From the IMG/VR virus record IMGVR_UViG_3300020049_002269, positions 2,188 to 66,187 of that record: 64,000 nucleotides of DNA; one strand, 5' to 3'. The position numbers and the translations under genes are program-made. The DNA is from a virus (taxonomy: Duplodnaviria; Caudoviricetes). Positions 7,168 through 64,000 of the stretch are shown here, one piece after another. Within the stretch, counting starts at the first letter, position 1, and each line of letters begins with the position of its first letter. The notes below the pieces were generated by a model that saw only the letters and a list, made by a program, of their open reading frames with translations, searched no databases and was not told the DNA's origin.

Positions 7168-7224
7168 CGCCAGAACCTTTCTTGCAAAACTTTGCACGTT
7201 CAGCATCAAAACACCCCCGATCCA

Positions 7225-7332
7225 TGCAACGCTGCAACGTGCCTATAGGCTTACGTTGCGTTGCGTTGCAGTTTTTGGATCTTCGCAACACTGCAACACG
7301 TATGTAACGTTGCGCCGTGTTGCAGTGTTGCA
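7225..7332. repeat. Cluster of 10 GCAAC/GTTGC pentamers in two dyads; probable replication origin
   Basis: Perfect 16-bp inverted repeat GCAACACTGCAACACG (7285-7300) / CGTGTTGCAGTGTTGC (7316-7331); second dyad centred on GCCTATAGGC; non-coding, just downstream of the primase. Confidence 0.6.
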
Positions 7333-7358
7333 GGTCCAATCCGCAAACATTTGCATGT

Positions 7359-9489: not shown

Positions 9490-9561
9490 CGCCATGGGTG
9501 GGTGCTCCGAAGTCGCCAAACCCTACCCGCTGTCCACGGGCCGGAACACCCACCCATGGCG
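9490..9561 (-). ncRNA. Putative C4/CI-like antisense RNA
   Basis: Perfect 15-bp closing stem (9490-9504 / 9547-9561) around two small hairpins whose sequences are complementary to flanking 6-8 nt targets. Confidence 0.5.
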
Positions 9562-9599
9562 GGACAGTTTGGTTTGGCCCCTCGACTGTAGCACGGGCT

Positions 9600-10374: not shown

Positions 10375-10402
10375 TTGACGGATGTTTAGCATGTGCTAAA
10401 GT
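10375..10402 (+). promoter_or_regulatory. Sigma70 promoter with overlapping palindromic operator
   Basis: TTGACG-N16-TAAAGT; operator TTTAGCATGTGCTAAA at 10385-10400. Confidence 0.65.
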
Positions 10403-10439
10403 TCAGACATCGACAACGCAAACGGAACGGAGCAGCAAA

Positions 10440-10748
10440 ATGGCACTCGACTTCAACGACGCAGAACAGACCCACTTCGGCTTGACCGTCAACGCCCCCT
10501 ACGTGACGTCTCGTGTCAGCTACCTGGGCGGCGAGGTCACCTTGATGGTGACTGTGTCTCTCGACAAGCGCAGCGACTGGGTAAACGGCATCTTGGAGAA
10601 CAGCCGCTACGCCAAGTTCTCGATCGAGAGCGACGGCACCATTGAGCACTTCTCCGGCAGTCTGCCGAAATTCCGCAAGTGCAAGGTTGTCGACCTCGAC
10701 AGCGCTGCCGCAAAGCTCAACACCTGGGTCAGAAAGATCGCCGCCTAA
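10440..10748 (+). CDS. Hypothetical early protein
   Basis: MALDFNDAEQTHF...; GGAG RBS in the conserved leader; true start is downstream of the track start. Confidence 0.65.
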   Translation: MALDFNDAEQTHFGLTVNAPYVTSRVSYLGGEVTLMVTVSLDKRSDWVNGILENSRYAKFSIESDGTIEHFSGSLPKFRKCKVVDLDSAAAKLNTWVRKIAA

Positions 10749-17747: not shown

Positions 17748-19135
17748 CGCGCCGCCAGTACACCCCACGGGCGTTTGCGCCGCTTGCCATGGCACACATG
17801 GCCGACGTTGAGCGCTGCGCCCTGTGGGCAAAGCCCGGCATGGGCAAGAGCGTGCTGACCATGACGCACCTCGACCTGCTGCACAACGTGTGGGGCGAGG
17901 ACGCGCCCACCCTGGTGCTGGCCCCGCTGCGCGTGGCGCGCGATGGCTGGGCCACGGAGGCTGCCAAGTGGCAGCACCTGAGCGGGCTCGAGGTGGTGCC
18001 CGTGATCGGCGACGTCAAGCAGCGCGCCGCCGCCCTGCGCCGCGATGCCCAGGTGTTCACGACCAACTACGAGAATGTGGTGTGGCTGCGCGACCACTTC
18101 AAGGACGCGGGCAAAGCGTGGCCCTTCCGCACCGTGGTGCCTGACGAGTGCACCAAGGTCAAGGGGTTCCGCCTGCGCCAGGGTGGCGTGCGTGCTCAAG
18201 CGCTGGCCAGTGTCGCTCACAAGGACGTCAAGCGCTGGATCAACCTGACCGGCACCCCGGCCAGTAATGGTCTCGAGGACCTGTGGGGGCAAACATGGTT
18301 CCTCGATGCAGGCCAGCGCCTCGGGCGCACGTTCTCGGCGTTCCGCGACAGGTGGTTCCGGCCGGTGCGCGCCGGTCAGTTCCACCAGTGGCGCGCGGCC
18401 GAGCACGCGGCCGACGAGATCCACGCCCGACTGGCCGACATCTGCCTGACGCTGGACCCGCGCGACTGGTTCGACCTCAAGGAGCCGATCGTCAACGTGA
18501 TCGAGGTCACCCTGCCCGCGCCCGCCCGCGCCAAGTACCGCGAGATGGAACGCGAGCTTTTCACGATGATCGACAAGTTCGAGGTCGAGGCGGTCAGCGC
18601 TGCTGCCAAGTATGGCAAGTGCCTGCAGATGGCAGGCGGTGCGGTCTACCTCGAGGACGGCGTGCAGTGGGTCGAGGTCCACCAGGAAAAGCTCGATGCG
18701 CTGGAAGAACTGGTCGAGGCCACGGGCGACGACCCGCTGCTGGTGAGCTATCAGTTCAAGCACGAGCTCGAGCGTCTCCTGCGCCGCTTCCCCGACGCGC
18801 TGGATCTGAGCAAGGCCGACAACATGGCAGCGGCCATGGCGGGCAAGGGCAAGCTGTGGCTCGGCCACCCGGCCAGCATGGGCCACGGGGTCGACGGCCT
18901 GCAGGAGCACTGCAACACGGTGGTGTTCTTTGCGCAGGACCCGAACCTCGAGTACCACGACCAACTGCTTGAGCGCGTGGGGCCGATGCGCCAGTACCAG
19001 GCAGGAAAAGACCGACCTGTGTTCCTCCACTACCTGGTGGCCAAGGGCACAATCGACGAGGTCGAGATGATGCGCCGCGAAACAAAACGAAGTATTCAGG
19101 ACACACTCATGTCGTATATGAAAGGTAAGCAATGA
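17744..19135 (+). CDS. SNF2-like SF2 helicase
   Basis: KPGMGKS, VVPDECTKVK, NLTGTPASNG, HPASMGHGVDGLQ, ERVGPMRQ. Confidence 0.9.
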   Translation: MTRRQYTPRAFAPLAMAHMADVERCALWAKPGMGKSVLTMTHLDLLHNVWGEDAPTLVLAPLRVARDGWATEAAKWQHLSGLEVVPVIGDVKQRAAALRRDAQVFTTNYENVVWLRDHFKDAGKAWPFRTVVPDECTKVKGFRLRQGGVRAQALASVAHKDVKRWINLTGTPASNGLEDLWGQTWFLDAGQRLGRTFSAFRDRWFRPVRAGQFHQWRAAEHAADEIHARLADICLTLDPRDWFDLKEPIVNVIEVTLPAPARAKYREMERELFTMIDKFEVEAVSAAAKYGKCLQMAGGAVYLEDGVQWVEVHQEKLDALEELVEATGDDPLLVSYQFKHELERLLRRFPDALDLSKADNMAAAMAGKGKLWLGHPASMGHGVDGLQEHCNTVVFFAQDPNLEYHDQLLERVGPMRQYQAGKDRPVFLHYLVAKGTIDEVEMMRRETKRSIQDTLMSYMKGKQ

Positions 19136-19371
19136 GCATTCCCACCATCACCATGATTGAACCCGCCAGCGCACTGGACGTGCAGGCCGGCGGCGACCAC
19201 TACAAGAAGCTGAAGATCCAACCCATCGAGTACATCCACGCGAACGGCATCCCCTTCGCCGAGGGCAGCGTCATCAAGTACGTGACCCGCTGGCGCGACA
19301 AGGGCGGCGTCAAGGACCTGGAGAAGGCCCGCCATTTTCTTGACCTCCTGATTGAGTTGGAGAGCCGCTGA
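19132..19371 (+). CDS. DUF3310 protein
   Basis: QAGGDHYKKLKIQPIEYI...GSVIKYVTRWRDKGGVKDLEKARHFL. Confidence 0.85.
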   Translation: MSIPTITMIEPASALDVQAGGDHYKKLKIQPIEYIHANGIPFAEGSVIKYVTRWRDKGGVKDLEKARHFLDLLIELESR

Positions 19372-19799
19372 TGCCCTGCCAACCCACCACCCGCCGCCTT
19401 GTCACGGACGCCCTGCGGGAGTTGCGCCGGGGTACGCTGCACGAGATCCGCGCGCACATCGACCGAGGCTTTTCCGAGGAGGCGGTGCGCGCTGCCATCC
19501 AGCGCATGCACCGGCACAAGGCCGGCAAGCTGGTCTACATCGCCAGCTGGAACCGCAAGCACACCGTAGGCGGCGACCACACCCCAGTCTGGGCGCTCGG
19601 CAACAAGCCCGACGCCCCGCCGCTTGAGAACATGACCAAGGCACAGCAGGCCAAGCTGTACCGGGCCAAGCACCGCATGCGCGAGAACGTCAAGGCCGCC
19701 GCCCGTGACGGCAGCCTCCTGACCACCAACCCTTTCGCCCAACTGCTGCGCCACGTCGGCGTGCAATACCGTATCCCAAGAAAGCAAGACCATGCCTGA
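19371..19799 (+). CDS. Hypothetical, likely winged-helix DNA-binding protein
   Basis: Basic 142-aa ORF overlapping both neighbours. Confidence 0.55.
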   Translation: MPCQPTTRRLVTDALRELRRGTLHEIRAHIDRGFSEEAVRAAIQRMHRHKAGKLVYIASWNRKHTVGGDHTPVWALGNKPDAPPLENMTKAQQAKLYRAKHRMRENVKAAARDGSLLTTNPFAQLLRHVGVQYRIPRKQDHA

Positions 19800-19989
19800 T
19801 GAATTTGACCTCGCCAGCGAGCGCGAGGAGATGGACCGCGAGAACTCCCTGCGCGTGCGCAAGCCCGCCGGCCCCCGGCCCAATGGCCGCTGTCACTTCT
19901 GTGACGAGATCGTCGACGACCACGCTCGCTGGTGTGACACCGACTGCCGCGCCGGTTGGCAGCGCGAGCAGAACAGGGGGCTGCGATGA
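19792..19989 (+). CDS. DksA/TraR-like C4 zinc-finger protein
   Basis: MPDEFDLASERE...CHFCDE...WCDTDC. Confidence 0.65.
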   Translation: MPDEFDLASEREEMDRENSLRVRKPAGPRPNGRCHFCDEIVDDHARWCDTDCRAGWQREQNRGLR

Positions 19990-20357
19990 CCACCCAATCC
20001 GTCACCACTGCACCACCCGGCGAGTTGCACTGGCGCTACACGGTGCCGCGCAACACCGACAGCAAGATGCTGCTGCTGAACCTCGGGGGCGTGGCCATCA
20101 TCGGCAGTTGGTACGGGGCAGTGGGCGAACACTTCCTTGCGTGGTGCCCGCTACCGAAGCGCGATAAGGGGCTTGAGGTTTCGCTGGGCTTGGTGCTCGA
20201 CTGCTACGACGCCGGGATTCTGAATGATTTTGGTGGCGGGAACGTCGAATGGTGGCAGGACTACATCCGAGCCGAGCTTGGGAACGCTCACGACTTCTAC
20301 CAGTCGCAAATCGCCCACCACGACATCACTGCCCAGGCCAAGAAGGAGACGCCATGA
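19986..20357 (+). CDS. Hypothetical protein
   Basis: ATGA-coupled; WCPLPKRD and VEWWQDYIRAEL segments. Confidence 0.55.
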   Translation: MTTQSVTTAPPGELHWRYTVPRNTDSKMLLLNLGGVAIIGSWYGAVGEHFLAWCPLPKRDKGLEVSLGLVLDCYDAGILNDFGGGNVEWWQDYIRAELGNAHDFYQSQIAHHDITAQAKKETP

Positions 20358-20563
20358 CACCGACCAGAGAGCAAGTGATTGCAGCACCCATCGAGTCGTA
20401 CAGCGCCGAGGATCGAGCCTTCTTCGCGTTTTGGTACGCGCACATGAAAGACGATCTGATGCAGCCGCCTTTGCACGAGTGCAGCCATGCAGTCGCGCGC
20501 TACATCTTCACCGCAGGCCGAGAGCAAGGGCTCAGGGAGGCGGAGGAGGCGTGTGAGGCCTAA
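20354..20563 (+). CDS. Hypothetical protein; stop codon lies in the first box of attC1
   Basis: MTPTREQVIAA...; TAA at 20561-20563 inside GCCTAAC. Confidence 0.55.
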   Translation: MTPTREQVIAAPIESYSAEDRAFFAFWYAHMKDDLMQPPLHECSHAVARYIFTAGREQGLREAEEACEA

Positions 20564-20618
20564 CCAGACAGCTGGGCGGCGGCCACTTGTGGACGTCCGC
20601 TTGAGCGCCCGGTTAGGC
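20558..20618 (-). other. attC site 1 (61 bp)
   Basis: + strand GCCTAAC-cagaca-GCTGGGC-N21-GCTTGAGC-gcccg-GTTAGGC; 7-6-7...8-5-7 geometry with extra G in the 8-bp box; left L box degenerate. Confidence 0.8.
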
Positions 20619-20664
20619 CTGGTGGCAGATGCTCAACTATTTCAAACTTTCTTCGCTTTCCCTA

Positions 20665-20693
20665 TTGCGTTACGCGTAACGATGCGCTAAAGT
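20665..20693 (+). promoter_or_regulatory. Sigma70 promoter with 14-bp palindromic operator
   Basis: TTGCGT-N17-TAAAGT; CGTTACGCGTAACG at 20668-20681. Confidence 0.65.
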
Positions 20694-20730
20694 ACACACA
20701 TCGACAACGCAAACAGAACGGAGCAGCAAA

Positions 20731-20937
20731 ATGAAGCACCACGTAGGAATCAAGAGCAAGGCAACGGGTCAGATCGTTGTGATCGGCGGCAATCGCTGCC
20801 AGCGCTTCGCTTTCACCGGCAACGGAGTCGTCACCCCCAAGGCGTTCGACACCCTGCCCGAGGGTCTTGAGAAGTGCCAACACTGTGCTGCGGAACTCGC
20901 CCGGGCTCGTGCCCGCCTTGCACGCAAGCACGCTTAA
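20731..20937 (+). CDS. Hypothetical cassette protein (68 aa)
   Basis: GGAG RBS in the conserved leader. Confidence 0.6.
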   Translation: MKHHVGIKSKATGQIVVIGGNRCQRFAFTGNGVVTPKAFDTLPEGLEKCQHCAAELARARARLARKHA

Positions 20938-20947
20938 ATACGACCAG

Positions 20948-21068
20948 GGCTTCGGCCCGCCCACCCCTCACATGACCACAGATGCCCCCAAGCCGATGAC
21001 GAACGCGGAACGCCAGCGCGCTTTCCGCGCCCGCAAAGCAGCACAAACAGCAGCCGAGGTGCGCGGCG
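20948..21068 (+). repeat. Direct repeat copy 1 (121 bp; copy 2 at 63880-64000)
   Basis: 120/121 identical; single C/A difference at 21013/63945 (synonymous Arg codon). Confidence 0.95.
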
Positions 21069-21163
21069 TGTTCGCCCGCCCCGATGACCACCAGGCCGTG
21101 AAGGACTACGCCGCCAAGCTGGCCAAGAAGCGGGCGAAGGCGGAGAAGGCTGATGGGGCCTAA
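20972..21163 (+). CDS. Small basic helical putative DNA-binding protein
   Basis: MTTDAPKPMTNAERQRAFRARKAAQ...; stop inside the attC2 box; duplicated at the window end. Confidence 0.7.
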   Translation: MTTDAPKPMTNAERQRAFRARKAAQTAAEVRGVFARPDDHQAVKDYAAKLAKKRAKAEKADGA

Positions 21164-21213
21164 CCAATAAGTTAACCGGCGCCGTCGGCGTCCGGTTGAA
21201 CTGGCGGTTAGGC
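21158..21213 (-). other. attC site 2 (56 bp)
   Basis: GCCTAAC-caataa-GTTAACC-ggcgccgtcggcgTcc-GGTTGAAC-tggcg-GTTAGGC; extrahelical G and T on the + strand. Confidence 0.92.
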
Positions 21214-21240
21214 GTTACGGACTAAACAGAAAGGATGCAC

Positions 21241-21522
21241 ATGAGCACCGAAGCAATGAAACTTGCGCTTGAGGCAATTCAGGACTTGCGAGGCTATCGA
21301 CCAGATATTGATAAGGCAATCGACGCGATCCGCACCGCCATCCAGCAGGCAGAGGCCCAGCAGCCCGCCACGCCTGAGCGGGTGCCGATGACGGATGAAG
21401 AAATAGGTTATTGGTATTCCCGCACACCATCAAACTTTGTATTCAGCCACTTCAAGGCAGCTATTCGCTCAGCCGAAGCCCACCACGGCATCACCACCAC
21501 CCCGCAGCCAAGTAACGCCTAA
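21241..21522 (+). CDS. Hypothetical cassette protein (phage mosaic type)
   Basis: MSTEAMKLALEA...AEAQQPA...MTDEEI...AIRSAEAHHGI; GAAAGGA RBS; stop inside the attC3 box. Confidence 0.7.
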   Translation: MSTEAMKLALEAIQDLRGYRPDIDKAIDAIRTAIQQAEAQQPATPERVPMTDEEIGYWYSRTPSNFVFSHFKAAIRSAEAHHGITTTPQPSNA

Positions 21523-21639
21523 CGCTGAGGTAACAGGCGCGCCGACTACCGGCGCAAACAAAGGAGAGGAAGCATGAACACACGAAACATCAAAACGAAG
21601 CTGCTGATCGGCGCGTCCTTGTTGACCGCCGTGTTAGCG
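21517..21639 (-). other. attC site 3 (123 bp), overlapped by the start of a lipoprotein gene
   Basis: GCCTAAC-gctga-GGTAACA-ggcgcgccga...tcggcgcgTcct-TGTTGACC-gccgt-GTTAGCG. Confidence 0.8.
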
Positions 21640-21816
21640 GCTGGGTGCAGTAATGAAAACTTGAATTTGCAACTAAGCAATGCCGTTAGCGAAGCAGACA
21701 AGCATACAGGGGTGATTCTATATAGCGGATATAGCTTCCAGCTTGTGCGCGTGAATATCAACGGCGTGGATTACATCGCCAACAGCAAAGGCGGACTTGT
21801 TCGTGTTGACCGCTAA
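21574..21816 (+). CDS. Small lipoprotein (cassette gene)
   Basis: MNTRNIKTKLLIGASLLTAVLAAG-C lipobox; GGAGAGG RBS inside attC3; stop inside the attC4 box. Confidence 0.75.
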   Translation: MNTRNIKTKLLIGASLLTAVLAAGCSNENLNLQLSNAVSEADKHTGVILYSGYSFQLVRVNINGVDYIANSKGGLVRVDR

Positions 21817-21912
21817 CGTTGCCAATAACCGGATACCAACGGCGCCGCAGGACTGACCGGAGCGCACCACGGCCACCCGCCGATGGTATTCCGGTTGATT
21901 GGCTGGTTAGGC
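21811..21912 (-). other. attC site 4 (102 bp)
   Basis: CGCTAAC-gttgcc-AATAACC-ggataccaacggcg...cgccgatggtaTtcc-GGTTGATT-ggctg-GTTAGGC. Confidence 0.9.
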
Positions 21913-21939
21913 CCGACGTGACCAACTAGGAGAACCACT

Positions 21940-22182
21940 GTGCAGATTACAGAGTACGTGCCCGCCGAGAAGTTTGGCCAGTTCCACGCGATCCTGTGCG
22001 CGACAGGTGGGCGCTACCTACGCGACCCATTCCCGTTGTGGGCGCGCGTGGAGGTGCATTACGAGCCAGGCGACTACAAGGCGCACTGCGAGGCATGGGC
22101 GCGCTGTGTGACGCCGATTCGAGAGGTCAGGCGAGATCAATGGTGGCGCGTGGCGCTGCGCCGCTGTGGACTGCGGGCCTAA
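21940..22182 (+). CDS. Hypothetical cassette protein (80 aa)
   Basis: GTG start with AGGAG RBS; stop inside the attC5 box. Confidence 0.65.
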   Translation: MQITEYVPAEKFGQFHAILCATGGRYLRDPFPLWARVEVHYEPGDYKAHCEAWARCVTPIREVRRDQWWRVALRRCGLRA

Positions 22183-22233
22183 CAAGACAGCTAAGCGCGC
22201 GGCGTAGCCGTCCGCTTGAGCGAACGGTTAGGC
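22177..22233 (-). other. attC site 5 (57 bp)
   Basis: GCCTAAC-aagaca-GCTAAGC-gcgcggcgtagccgTcc-GCTTGAGC-gaacg-GTTAGGC; clearly related to attC1. Confidence 0.92.
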
Positions 22234-22251
22234 GGCGCATCGGAGGATCAC

Positions 22252-22494
22252 ATGGACGACCCGCAAGAAAGAGCAAAGCGACTGGCGACAACAGCCGCCG
22301 AGGAATTTGTTAGGTGCAACGGCATCTCGACCGGCACGCCAGATGAATTCATTTTTCACGGCGCAGACCTTGCCGATGAGTATTTTCAGGACTGTATCGC
22401 GCACCTGAAATGGGCCGGCGAATGCGTGGTTTTTGAGCATGATGAAGAAACGACGGTTCTTCTCGGAGATTACACATTGGGGAGCTTTGAATGA
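22252..22494 (+). CDS. Hypothetical acidic cassette protein
   Basis: MDDPQERAKRL...; GGAGG RBS just after attC5. Confidence 0.65.
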   Translation: MDDPQERAKRLATTAAEEFVRCNGISTGTPDEFIFHGADLADEYFQDCIAHLKWAGECVVFEHDEETTVLLGDYTLGSFE

Positions 22495-22766
22495 GCAAAT
22501 CAACAGTGCCGCAGCGCGCCAAGAAGTACGCAGACAACTTCAACGCATCGCAAGACCTGACGCTGCAACACGCCGCATGCGCGGGGTTCAGGGCCGGATT
22601 TGAAGCGCACAAACGCGACGTTCGGCCAACACTGCACGATCTTGAGGACGAATGCCGTCGCAGGTTCTATTACCTGAGCAAGATGGGTCTATGGGATGAC
22701 TACCTGGCCAGAAAAGAGCAGGGCGAATTTGAGTTCGTGCGCGGCATTAAGCGCTGCGCAAAGTGA
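22491..22766 (+). CDS. Hypothetical cassette protein (91 aa)
   Basis: ATGA-coupled to the previous ORF; ends 1 nt before the GCCTAAC box. Confidence 0.6.
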   Translation: MSKSTVPQRAKKYADNFNASQDLTLQHAACAGFRAGFEAHKRDVRPTLHDLEDECRRRFYYLSKMGLWDDYLARKEQGEFEFVRGIKRCAK

Positions 22767-22805
22767 CGCCTAACCGTTATTAGGCGTCGGAACCTGACGG
22801 ATAAC
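22765..22805 (-). other. attI-like tyrosine-recombinase core site
   Basis: GACGCCTAA-CCGTTA-TTAGGCGTC (9-bp arms, 6-bp spacer), no L boxes; on minus an upstream GTTATCC lies 31 nt before the G/TT crossover. Confidence 0.55.
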
Positions 22806-22842
22806 GATGGCCCTCACTGGGCCATCCACACAGAAAGCACAC

Positions 22843-23031
22843 ATGAGCTTTACCATTACCCCAACGCGATGCGAAATCTGGGGCGAAGAACTGGAAGCGG
22901 TGATTGAGATGCAAGACAAGTACGCCTCCAGCGTCACCATCAAGGCGCTGCAATCGCCCGCCTCATGGCGCGAACTGGCCGAGGCCGTGCAGTGCGCACT
23001 GGAGACGATGCACCCGGAGTCAGCCAAATGA
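22843..23031 (+). CDS. Hypothetical protein
   Basis: MSFTITPTRCEIW...; coupled to the next ORF. Confidence 0.55.
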   Translation: MSFTITPTRCEIWGEELEAVIEMQDKYASSVTIKALQSPASWRELAEAVQCALETMHPESAK

Positions 23032-23228
23032 CCGACACCAAAGTAGCTTGGAAGCGCCGAGCATTGAGGGCTGAGCAGGAGCTTGAGGACCTTCGGAAAA
23101 TCCGCGATTCCGAGACGGACATGCAGCGCAGCTTGCTCAGGCAGGCTGGCGGGTTTGCCGTGGCGATCAGCGAAATTGAGGACGCTATCCAAGCGGCAAA
23201 AGACTACATCGGAGGGAGTGCACGATGA
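23028..23228 (+). CDS. Hypothetical coiled-coil protein
   Basis: MTDTKVAWKRRALRAEQELEDLRK... Confidence 0.55.
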   Translation: MTDTKVAWKRRALRAEQELEDLRKIRDSETDMQRSLLRQAGGFAVAISEIEDAIQAAKDYIGGSAR

Positions 23229-23539
23229 CACGCGAACAGAAACTAGCCCACCTTCAAGCGTGGCACGACGCCATGACCCGCGCAGACGACGCAATCCAGC
23301 CGGTCATCGACGCGCTCAAGCTGTGCGGAGAAGACCCCATCACGAACACTGTATGGCAGTTGCAAACCGACCTCACGCGGGCCTATGCCGAGATTCTGGA
23401 TGACGCGTTTGAATCGCTGAGCTGGTACGCGAGCGAGAACGACATGGGCGCGAAAGGTAGAGAGGCTGGCATCGGATCAGATGTGCGCCCAATCCGCACG
23501 GTGGAAGACCTGCTGTGGCTGATTGAGGTGACAGCATGA
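23225..23539 (+). CDS. Hypothetical protein
   Basis: 104 aa; LSWYASENDMG...IRTVEDL; GGAGG-like RBS. Confidence 0.6.
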   Translation: MTREQKLAHLQAWHDAMTRADDAIQPVIDALKLCGEDPITNTVWQLQTDLTRAYAEILDDAFESLSWYASENDMGAKGREAGIGSDVRPIRTVEDLLWLIEVTA

Positions 23540-23665
23540 GCCGCAGAGCACGCGCCCGCCGCGAGGCCATCGAATCCAAGTACGTCGCCATGCTTGAGGA
23601 TGACGACACAGACGAAGCAGACTGGGAAGACGCGGACTATAACAGCCTGCGACTGTATGACGAGA

Positions 23666-24118
23666 TTAGCGAGGATTCACCGGCCAGGCTTCAATCATTG
23701 TCCTGAGGTCTGTGACGTGTCCGTCAGCTTTTCCCGCCAGCGCTGTAAGCTCTGCTGCACACTCTCCGAATACGTCTGCTGAGGCAATGGAGTAGTCAAC
23801 TGCGGAGGCGGGGGAAGCTGTGACGGCTGCAGATCGCTTTTTGATGGTGATGCGCAGCCGGTCAAGCTCAGAGCGAGCACCGTCAGCAGCAAGGCGGATT
23901 TCGTTTTCTCGTGTGCGCGCATTGTTCAGGGCCTCCGTATATTGGTCAGTGATGAGGCGCGTTTTGCGCTCTGCCTCGTTTCGTTCGGCTTGGCGCTCTG
24001 CCTCTATGGCGGAAATCTGTGATTGGTAGTGCGACTCAACCCGCCACCCATTGACAACAGCCCCCGCCACAAACGCAGCAAGCACCACCAACCCCTTAAC
24101 GTACACAGTCTGGATCAT
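23666..24118 (-). CDS. i-spanin (Rz-like)
   Basis: N-terminal TM helix GLVVLAAFVAGAVVNGW followed by coiled coil; downstream of the endolysin. Confidence 0.75.
   Translation of the reverse strand: MIQTVYVKGLVVLAAFVAGAVVNGWRVESHYQSQISAIEAERQAERNEAERKTRLITDQYTEALNNARTRENEIRLAADGARSELDRLRITIKKRSAAVTASPASAVDYSIASADVFGECAAELTALAGKADGHVTDLRTMIEAWPVNPR
23695..23922 (-). CDS. o-spanin lipoprotein (Rz1-like), embedded in the i-spanin
   Basis: Lipobox LSLTG-C, Pro-rich mature part, different frame fully inside Rz. Confidence 0.75.
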   Translation of the reverse strand: MRAHEKTKSALLLTVLALSLTGCASPSKSDLQPSQLPPPPQLTTPLPQQTYSESVQQSLQRWREKLTDTSQTSGQ

Positions 24119-62743: not shown

Positions 62744-63073
62744 ATGGACTTCCCAATCTACCAACTCCAAGCCATGCGCACGGCCAAGCCGATGGAGCCG
62801 ATTGACGACCTGATGCACGCAGCATTGGGCCTTGCTGGCGAGGCTGGCGAGTTTGCCGACGCCGTGAAAAAGAACTTTGTCTATGGTCGAGAGCTTGACC
62901 GTGAGAACGCTATTGAGGAACTTGGCGACATTCTTTGGTTTGTGGCGCTGGGCTGTAATGCTTTGGGCATTTCAATGTCTGATGTGGCGCAACGCAACAT
63001 TGACAAGCTGCGTCGTCGGTATCCTGAGAAGTACGAGGATGAGTTGGCTTACAAGCGTATGGACAAAGCATGA
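62744..63073 (+). CDS. MazG-like nucleotide pyrophosphohydrolase
   Basis: LGLAGEAGEFADAVKK...EELGDILWF...NIDKLRRRYP. Confidence 0.85.
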   Translation: MDFPIYQLQAMRTAKPMEPIDDLMHAALGLAGEAGEFADAVKKNFVYGRELDRENAIEELGDILWFVALGCNALGISMSDVAQRNIDKLRRRYPEKYEDELAYKRMDKA

Positions 63074-63555
63074 GCAAACGCAAACGCTACCGCCCCAAGC
63101 CCGTCAACCCGAGCGTGCTGGCATTGGCGAGCATCGGCCAGTCAAAGCTGATGCCAGAGGATCAAGAGGCCCGCATTGCACCGCCTCGCCTTGCGCTTGA
63201 GCAGATCACCAAAGGGCAGGCATCACAAGCCGACTGGCAGGCGATATTTGATGTGATCAACATGCTGGATCGTTTTGTGAAAATGCCCACCGTGATGCGA
63301 CACGGTAAGGACTACCTGAACACCGTGCAGGGCGTTCTCGTGGCGATTCTTGACAGGCAGAAAGCAACAGGCACAAAGGCGATCTATCCTGGAGAGCTGG
63401 AAGACATTCGCGGATTGGTTGATCTTTGGTCTGAGCTTCTCGCCACCGTCACGCACCGTGAATACTCGCTTGCCGAGGATCGCGCACATGCTCGGCTTGT
63501 GTCTGTGCTGCGCGCAAGAAAGCCAGTGCCTGGCGTGATCGTGTGTGAGGCGTAA
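63070..63555 (+). CDS. Hypothetical helical protein
   Basis: Same apparent family as 17313-17747. Confidence 0.6.
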   Translation: MSKRKRYRPKPVNPSVLALASIGQSKLMPEDQEARIAPPRLALEQITKGQASQADWQAIFDVINMLDRFVKMPTVMRHGKDYLNTVQGVLVAILDRQKATGTKAIYPGELEDIRGLVDLWSELLATVTHREYSLAEDRAHARLVSVLRARKPVPGVIVCEA

Positions 63556-63642
63556 TCCCGACTGATCCGTGTGGGCTTTGCTTGCGTGCACTAGCGGTAG
63601 TGTTAAGATCACTACATCGACAACGCAAACGGAGAACGCAAG

Positions 63643-63867: not shown

Positions 63868-63879
63868 ACTGAACACCAT

Positions 63880-64000
63880 GGCTTCGGCCCGCCCACCCCT
63901 CACATGACCACAGATGCCCCCAAGCCGATGACGAACGCGGAACGACAGCGCGCTTTCCGCGCCCGCAAAGCAGCACAAACAGCAGCCGAGGTGCGCGGCG
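63880..64000 (+). repeat. Direct repeat copy 2, containing the 5' part of a second copy of the MTNAERQR gene (ATG 63904); runs off the edge
   Basis: 120/121 identical to 20948-21068. Confidence 0.95.

Follow-up and report, generated by a model that had tools for sequence, protein, structure and literature searches.

We examined a 64,000-nucleotide (nt) stretch, hereafter the window, of a tailed-phage (Caudoviricetes) record, IMGVR_UViG_3300020049_002269 (positions 2,188 to 66,187 of that record), which holds an array of five integron-type attC sites. The third site, attC3, encloses the ribosome-binding site (RBS) and start codon of an open reading frame (ORF) of 80 amino acids (aa), and its right arm is read in the frame of that ORF. 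From the comparisons below, attC3 is probably a true member of the widespread integron attC family and double-coding, its DNA serving also as ORF start and lipoprotein leader. The features of the locus are the following.

20558–22233, + strand, the attC bottom strand lying on the gene strand: array of five attC sites (20558–20618, 21158–21213, 21517–21639, 21811–21912 and 22177–22233).
21517–21639, + strand (recombinogenic bottom strand): attC3, a complete attC site of 123 nt, called from covariance model R1, the single-stranded DNA (ssDNA) fold and the arm duplex.
21517–21523, + strand: R' box of attC3, GCCTAAC, with predicted cleavage between A21522 and C21523.
21524–21545, + strand: left arm of attC3, noncoding here, with spacer GCTGA, L-box GGT-AACA-GG and inner stem CGCGCCGA.
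21546–21607, + strand: variable terminal loop of attC3, 62 nt, with the RBS GGAGAGG (21563–21569), the ATG (21574) and the n-region codons.
21608–21639, + strand: right arm of attC3, made up of TCGGCGCG, T24 (21616), CC, T21 (21619), TGTT, G16 (21624), ACC, GCCGT and the R'' box.
21633–21639, + strand: R'' box of attC3, GTTAGCG, whose GTTAG pairs with CTAAC of the left box.
21574–21816, + strand: 80-aa prolipoprotein gene, with lipobox L-A-A-G-C, the Cys25 codon at 21646–21648 and a mature domain of 55 aa.
21523–21816, + strand: predicted cassette 3, 294 bp, comprising the attC minus its first 6 nt, the RBS and the whole gene, and ending with the stop codon in CGCTAA; delimited from a sister cassette, the box rule and contig breaks.
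21811–21912, + strand: attC4, the attC of the next cassette (R1 score 26 bits), whose left box CGCTAAC (21811–21817) is complementary to the attC3 right box.

The TAA of the attC3 left box GCCTAAC is the stop codon of an upstream 93-aa gene, the loop codes for a positively charged n-region (MNTRNIKTKLL), and the 32-nt right arm in the frame of the ORF gives (I)GASLLTAVLA, the h-region of a signal peptide, with A-G-C next; the AAG-C lipobox stands directly after the R'' box. The leader conforms to the PROSITE-type lipobox rule, with R4, K7 and K9, the stretch SLLTAVLAAGC ending in Cys25, and a mean hydropathy of 2.17 over residues 10–24. Judged from this leader, the 80-aa protein would be exported and lipidated at Cys25. 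An earlier note on this DNA, made from its letters alone, had described the boxes, the RBS GGAGAGG, the ATG at 21574, the 80-aa ORF, the IGASLLTAVLA arm and the complementarity of GTTAGCG to CGCTAAC, and every one of these sequence statements proved correct.

The attC boxes are concentrated at this locus: of the eight GCCTAAC and four GTTAGGC boxes in the 64 kb, five and four, respectively, fall in the 2.2 kb from 20558 to 22774, and the upstream + strand gene of each window attC ends at a TAA within the left box. In recombined attC sites, the bottom strand carries 5'-RYYYAAC-3' on its 5' arm and extrahelical G16 and T23/24, sometimes with a third base at 20, on the other arm; cleavage follows the rule 5'-AA^C-3' (PMC5027507). 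We checked the strand convention on the aadA1 attC of plasmid R100 against the orientation of aadA1. That site lies downstream of the gene, and on the gene strand the extra base falls in the 5' arm, which gives G16 and T23 on the complement. On the + strand of all five window sites, one G bulges out exactly 16 nt before the 3' end and one T at position 23 or 24. It follows that the attC bottom strand is the + strand, on which the phage genes are coded, and that each window attC precedes the gene of its own cassette, with a predicted cut at GCCTAA^C. In attC3, the extrahelical bases G21624 (position 16) and T21616 (position 24) are separated by six pairs and a third bulged T and lie on the arm opposite the AAC triplet, the canonical bottom-strand geometry. 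Its length of 123 nt falls within the 57–141 nt range used for attC sites, and relatives with the same arms measure 56–125 nt.

When the + strand of 21517–21639 was folded as ssDNA, a check that the earlier note had proposed, the minimum-energy structure paired both arms round the 62-nt loop; the − strand did not fold in this way. The fold of the whole 123-mer was not better than those of shuffled sequences (z −0.59), a value that speaks against a structured site and reflects the fact that most of attC3 is long loop.

We trained a covariance model, R1, on 42 attC sites that all lie outside the window and contain no embedded ORF. Run on the 64 kb, it returned the same five sites that the earlier note had listed, all on the + strand with E values of ~6e-4 or better; the next match had an E value of 0.048. 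The best match was attC3 (49.5 bits, E ~1e-13, model positions 1–90 of 90), a top rank that is partly by construction because the R1 training sites had been gathered with a motif from the attC3 left arm and a loose right-arm pattern. The match ended exactly at 21517 and 21639, the ends given in the earlier note, whose identification of a recombination-type hairpin is borne out by this match and by the canonical geometry. Over 29 sources, R1 found 80 sites, which lie on one strand only within each locus. In the covariation alignment of these sites (A4), itself fitted to the R1 model, 97.6% of cells were paired and 172 were double-change cells, values reached by 0 of 500 shuffles; compensatory changes occurred in 10 of the 12 L-stem pairs, and slid controls were 29–43% paired.

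The left-arm motif TAACGCNNAGGTAACNGGCGC was present in more than 120 bacterial loci, often in several copies per locus, and in 20 viral contigs. The bacterial loci belong mostly to Marinobacter, with others in Halomonas, Idiomarina, Methylophaga and one metagenome-assembled Accumulibacter genome. Their copies of the motif form 89–90-nt repeats with matching right arms, and an integron integrase scoring above the curated cut-off was detected in three of the five genomes holding this attC family.

The weak whole-site fold would suit an explanation by chance, in which the left arm happens to complement signal-peptide DNA in a GC-rich sequence by a lone GCCTAAC. However, the arm-to-arm duplex of attC3 reaches −22.7 kcal/mol, whereas 18,250 other 30-nt windows of the same DNA average −9.6 kcal/mol (standard deviation 2.8) and only three of them pair as well. 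The E value of R1 also argues against chance, as does the recurrence of the same arm pair in other contigs. On these comparisons, the chance explanation, which we hold to be exceedingly improbable, is effectively refuted.

A 23-nt core of the attC3 right arm is identical in nine further loci, and a 33-nt leader block is identical in the window and in contigs L038 and L041; a search of the genome collection with the exact 23-nt right arm gave no match. Sites with both arms, six in number and with different upstream flanks, occur in L047, L048 (two copies), L049, L050 and L052. All six front a lipoprotein unrelated to the 80-aa protein (phrog_10627). Additionally, protein P0018 (90 aa, phrog_902) carries the leader of the 80-aa protein on an unrelated mature domain, so that three unrelated mature domains share the attC3-type leader, in one of the three lipoproteins without the outer left arm. 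The inner stem reads CGCGCCGA/TCGGCGCG in the window and L047, and CGCTGCGCC/GGCGCAGCG in L048, L050 and L052; in the latter three contigs, an additional Ala codon in the right arm is matched by additional bases in the noncoding left arm. As aligned here, the noncoding left arm is seen to covary with the coding right arm. From group to group of attC3-type sites, the loop that carries the RBS and n-region varies. Among all copies, DNA identity includes synonymous positions and stops at the last base of GTTAGCG; past this base, the lipobox codons differ between copies at synonymous and non-synonymous positions.

A 298-bp sister cassette with the same attC type is 99.3–100% identical in four contexts, two of which are in one contig, and the 80 nt on each side of it are only 20–41% identical. 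Its two limits, TAA|C at the start and CGCTAA|C at the end, are those predicted for 21523–21816. These four contexts show that a sister cassette delimited in this way is mobile. The two copies in one contig, L048:8414-8710 and L048:10305-10601 (−), are 100% identical, lie 1.9 kb apart and have different neighbours.

Over all arrays, 51 pairs of neighbouring sites were compared by the three variable bases of their boxes. The right box was fully complementary to the left box of the following site in 31 of these pairs and to the left box of the same site in 5; 26 pairs matched the following site only and none matched only their own, and several of the non-matching pairs are separated by a site that went undetected. 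The window pair GTTAGCG/CGCTAAC obeys this next-box rule. The earlier note had read that complementarity as the trace of a circular cassette spanning 21523–21816. Those boundaries agree with the sister cassette, but box complementarity does not by itself place the crossover; to judge from the sites aligned, its side is told by the bulge positions and by the extent of the sister cassette. We also considered a crossover at G|TTAGCG, with + as the top strand and a cassette of 21634–21906 holding a truncated gene. This candidate was rejected: the extrahelical bases are on the 3' arm of the + strand, and the sister cassette takes in the upstream attC and leaves out the downstream one.

Logan contigs of four wastewater, activated-sludge and freshwater runs, which show presence only, were compared with the window over 20400–22900. 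Contigs end at 21523 in two runs and begin at 21813–21815, after unrelated sequence, in four; others end at 22183 and 22774, and these positions are likewise predicted junctions. In one wastewater contig (run X9), the attC3 arms surround a standard 28-nt loop. No joint skipping 21523–21816 was present in these presence-only contigs.

Several points weigh against the reading of attC3 as a double-coding member of a mobile attC family, besides the whole-site fold, the origin of the R1 training sites and the fitting of the alignment to R1. The 66-kb record contains no tyrosine recombinase (no TIGR02249 or PF00589 match), and any recombination must therefore use a host enzyme. The cargo of cassette 3 (21660–21743) has zero depth in the presence-only contigs of the four runs, and no second context for it was found. 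In L038-40, L041 and L051, the 33-nt leader DNA is kept and the outer left arm is lacking, so the coding role can persist without the hairpin. Conversely, L182:186-309 (−) keeps the hairpin of an attC3-type site, together with its RBS, ATG and arm, but the ORF ends after 24 codons (MSKNRLKPALTVGASLLTVELGWF) and encodes no lipoprotein. The hairpin and leader roles are therefore separable, and the window copy may be a fossil. Finally, the assembly of the record may be at fault, either as a lariat or as a chimera of two phages.

The lack of an integrase in the record, the leaders kept without the left arm and the remnant ORF of L182 all fit an account in which attC3 descends from a real attC, its cassette is now fixed and its right arm is kept only as code for a signal peptide. 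We consider this account unlikely, as in six contexts the noncoding left arm is not only conserved but changes in step with the right arm, the near-identity of the sister cassette in its four contexts implies recent movement, and the identity of the copies, synonymous positions included, stops exactly at the R'' box. We infer that the window copy of attC3 still recombines, with a host IntI as the recombinase. The earlier proposal that the same DNA acts as a recombination hairpin and an export signal thus held on comparative grounds (geometry, R1, covariation, the sister cassette and the box rule), with the qualification that the dyad is lacking in three lineages. The outcome of the conservation check that the note had suggested was divided: pairing and leader are both kept in L047-L050 and L052, and the peptide occurs without the dyad in L038-40, L041 and L051.

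The hairpin is transcribed in the sense direction with the RBS and ATG in its loop, which would also be expected if the dyad were kept for a role in RNA, as an mRNA hairpin presenting the RBS, a stabiliser or a weak terminator, and if the modules were shuffled by homologous or illegitimate recombination without an integrase. Phage mosaicism is well known, and the repeated junction motifs of L041 (CTAACCCTGAGAGGAGAC) occur without hairpins, as ordinary recombination would have it. Against this, all five sites of the window combine G16 and T23/24 at 6-bp spacing with RYYYAAC/GTTRRRY boxes, features specific to IntI; the same attC family fills the bacterial arrays of IntI-bearing genomes, and the unit boundaries lie inside the AAC core. 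A role in RNA with integrase-free shuffling therefore appears quite improbable, and we retain the reading of attC3 as an integron attC.

The 80-aa protein has 17 homologues of 71–86 aa. Their mature part is well conserved, with 25 invariant columns, and their leaders differ; the lipobox Cys is kept in at least 90% of them. Among these homologues, only those of the window and L041 have the leader ..LIGASLLTAVLA.GC. In L042 and L043, the homologue is part of an attC array, and the whole of an ordinary attC precedes its gene; the right box is GTTAGGG and the gene ends in CCCTAA|C. The closest homologue is in the phage contig L041 (4900-5440), where gene junctions of the form CGCTAAC-CCTGAGAGGAGAC-N-ATG occur without hairpins and CGCTAAC terminates two different genes.

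The function that the earlier note had offered for the protein, superinfection exclusion, found no support. The 80-aa protein had no Pfam match and no significant PHROG match. A PHROG match to Cor (E 0.04) covered only residues 1–39 of a homologue, that is, the leader. The AlphaFold2 model of the mature domain was weak, with a predicted local distance difference test score (pLDDT) of 62, and its best Foldseek hit had an E value of 0.73, with no PDB match at E ≤0.001. A protein atlas returned only unnamed viral clusters with scores below 0.9, a viral-contig scan with the lipoprotein gave no confirmed relative, and a look-up for contigs encoding the exact 80-aa protein found none on record.

We then compared the orientation of cassettes in bacteria and phages. 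In the bacterial arrays, ORFs lie opposite the motif strand (67 versus 10 downstream and 63 versus 5 upstream), the canonical arrangement. The strand of viral ORFs was judged by stop-frame and start-offset tests, as the open-frame test is unsuited to GC-rich viral loci. At every site in the viral contigs, a long same-strand ORF reaches up to or into the left box, and another same-strand ORF starts within the attC site or a few tens of bases past it. The phage cassettes are therefore inverted relative to the canonical arrangement.

The common viral attC type (76-79 nt; L173, L176-L180, L184-L186 and L050:1403-1478) is coding over the whole site. Translation of the left arm by the upstream ORF gives ..NAEVTGA and terminates at the TGA within an ATGA of the loop, whose ATG starts the downstream ORF. 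In many of these sites, the right box GTTATGC gives an in-frame ATG (for example, that of MPHGQYGCILADPPW methyltransferases), and the cassette end GCATAA gives a stop. In the long-loop sites L187:2890-3012 and L181:9201-9325, an ORF begins in the loop and the right arm is read in the same frame. These right arms translate as GAASELSAGLD and GAASLLTDVLG, respectively, which are not signal peptides, and the ORF of L181 runs on into a Dam-like methyltransferase.

A broader and more tentative proposal, which we put forward with some doubt, is that the attC3 type is a portable N-terminal module and that wastewater phages hold a distinct class of inverted, wholly coding cassettes. If so, the module would bring an RBS, a start codon and a lipoprotein leader, and unrelated cargo joined behind the R'' box would become an exported lipoprotein. 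In the inverted class, the left arm would supply ..NAEVTGA and a stop, and GCATAA/GTTATGC would give a stop and a start. Such cassettes would be packed without intergenic space, and transcription would leave the recombinogenic strand unpaired.

For attC3 itself, we propose that the variable loop grew to 62 nt and took in the codons of the charged n-region together with the ATG and a Shine-Dalgarno site. In its single-stranded form, the + strand would fold and expose G16 and T24 to a host IntI, which would cleave GCCTAA^C and CGCTAA^C. A 294-nt circle would be freed, with the predicted junction CGCTAA^CGCTGAGG, carrying an attC and a complete, self-translating lipoprotein gene. The leader would direct Sec export, and Lgt and Lsp would process the protein at Cys25.

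As to the integrity of the record, a 126-bp direct repeat, 98.4% identical, lies at 20943–21068 and at 63875–64000 (the record end); attC1 is to the left of the repeat and attC2 to attC5 are all to its right, on one side. Related contigs L002-L037 match 8.5–20.2 kb of the window and do not match 24–64 kb. Two replication modules are present, one with DNA pol A, DUF2800 and SNF2 at 12–19 kb and one with a Prim-Pol and a helicase at 52–60 kb. The podovirus-like contigs L002-L037 were searched for the box cluster, which was not found, and megablast of 19000–24000 against deposited phages gave no match.

Further observations concern the ends of the array and repeats elsewhere in the window. A small hairpin, GACGCCTAA-CCGTTA-TTAGGCGTC, at 22765–22788 closes the array; cassette 5 ends with the left arm of this hairpin, which may mark the place where the array was first inserted. 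The gene ahead of attC1 ends in the near-identical GAGGCCTAA, and a gene at 63070–63555 ends in GAGGCGTAA. A 52-nt leader (..ACATCGACAACGCAAAC..) stands before different small ORFs at 10391–10442 and 20682–20733 (also 63600–63640), with 92% identity. A hairpin GCCAAAC...GTTTGGC at 9515–9578 is conserved in L004, L007, L011 and L032, and 7224–7333 contains dense TGCAAC/GTTGCA repeats with two long hairpins, possibly iterons or an operator.

One strand of attC3 would be under three demands at once, namely a structure read by the integrase (extrahelical bases and stems), a translation start and a hydrophobic export signal. Integron biology still asks how an attC comes to be joined to a gene and what further constraints it can bear, and the co-evolving arms offer a natural system for gauging the sequence freedom of attC. 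Phages can carry cassettes without intergenic DNA, and small phage lipoproteins might be swapped as 0.3-kb units between wastewater phages and bacteria. Should attC3 not recombine, it would still plainly exemplify the recruitment of a structured repeat as coding sequence. A full-text literature search found no report of an attC holding a translation start or encoding a signal peptide; the double-coding attC appears to be new, and attC clusters in phages have already been published.

The lipoprotein resembles Cor and Llp, which act in superinfection exclusion, and the o-spanins in being a short phage protein with a signal peptidase II-type signal and a mature part of ~55 aa. It has no significant sequence or fold similarity to them, and its gene does not lie in a lysis cassette. 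The array has neither intI nor attI beside it and is therefore by definition a CALIN (a cluster of attC sites lacking an integrase), not a complete integron. According to excerpts of Qi et al. 2023 (PMC9892861), phage CALINs likewise have several attC sites per phage genome and no intI, and phage attC sites can be recombined by IntI1. The CALINs described in those excerpts have the typical bacterial orientation, with some divergent sites and methyltransferase cargo; an attC with a start codon or signal peptide is not mentioned there.

The attC sites of the chromosomal cassette arrays of Marinobacter and Halomonas have arms nearly identical to those of attC3 (left TAAC-GCTGA-GGTAAC-CGGCGC, right GCG-T-CCGGTT-G-ACC-GCCTG-GTTA), but they measure 89–90 nt, have a fixed noncoding loop and are accompanied by ORFs on the opposite strand. 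The structure and strand choice of attC sites are textbook knowledge, and an attC is usually seen as a noncoding element that follows a gene. Like canonical attC sites (aadA7/aadA1 and VCR2), attC3 has R'/R'' boxes of the form RYYYAAC/GTTRRRY, an unpaired spacer, an L box and a terminal loop, with extrahelical G16, N20/21 and T24 on the bottom strand; its three-bulge layout is that of VCR2. Unlike the canonical integron, its array has no integrase or attI in cis. In canonical cassettes the gene occupies the top strand and is followed by the attC; the gene studied here occupies the bottom strand and is preceded by the attC, which overlaps its first 22 codons.

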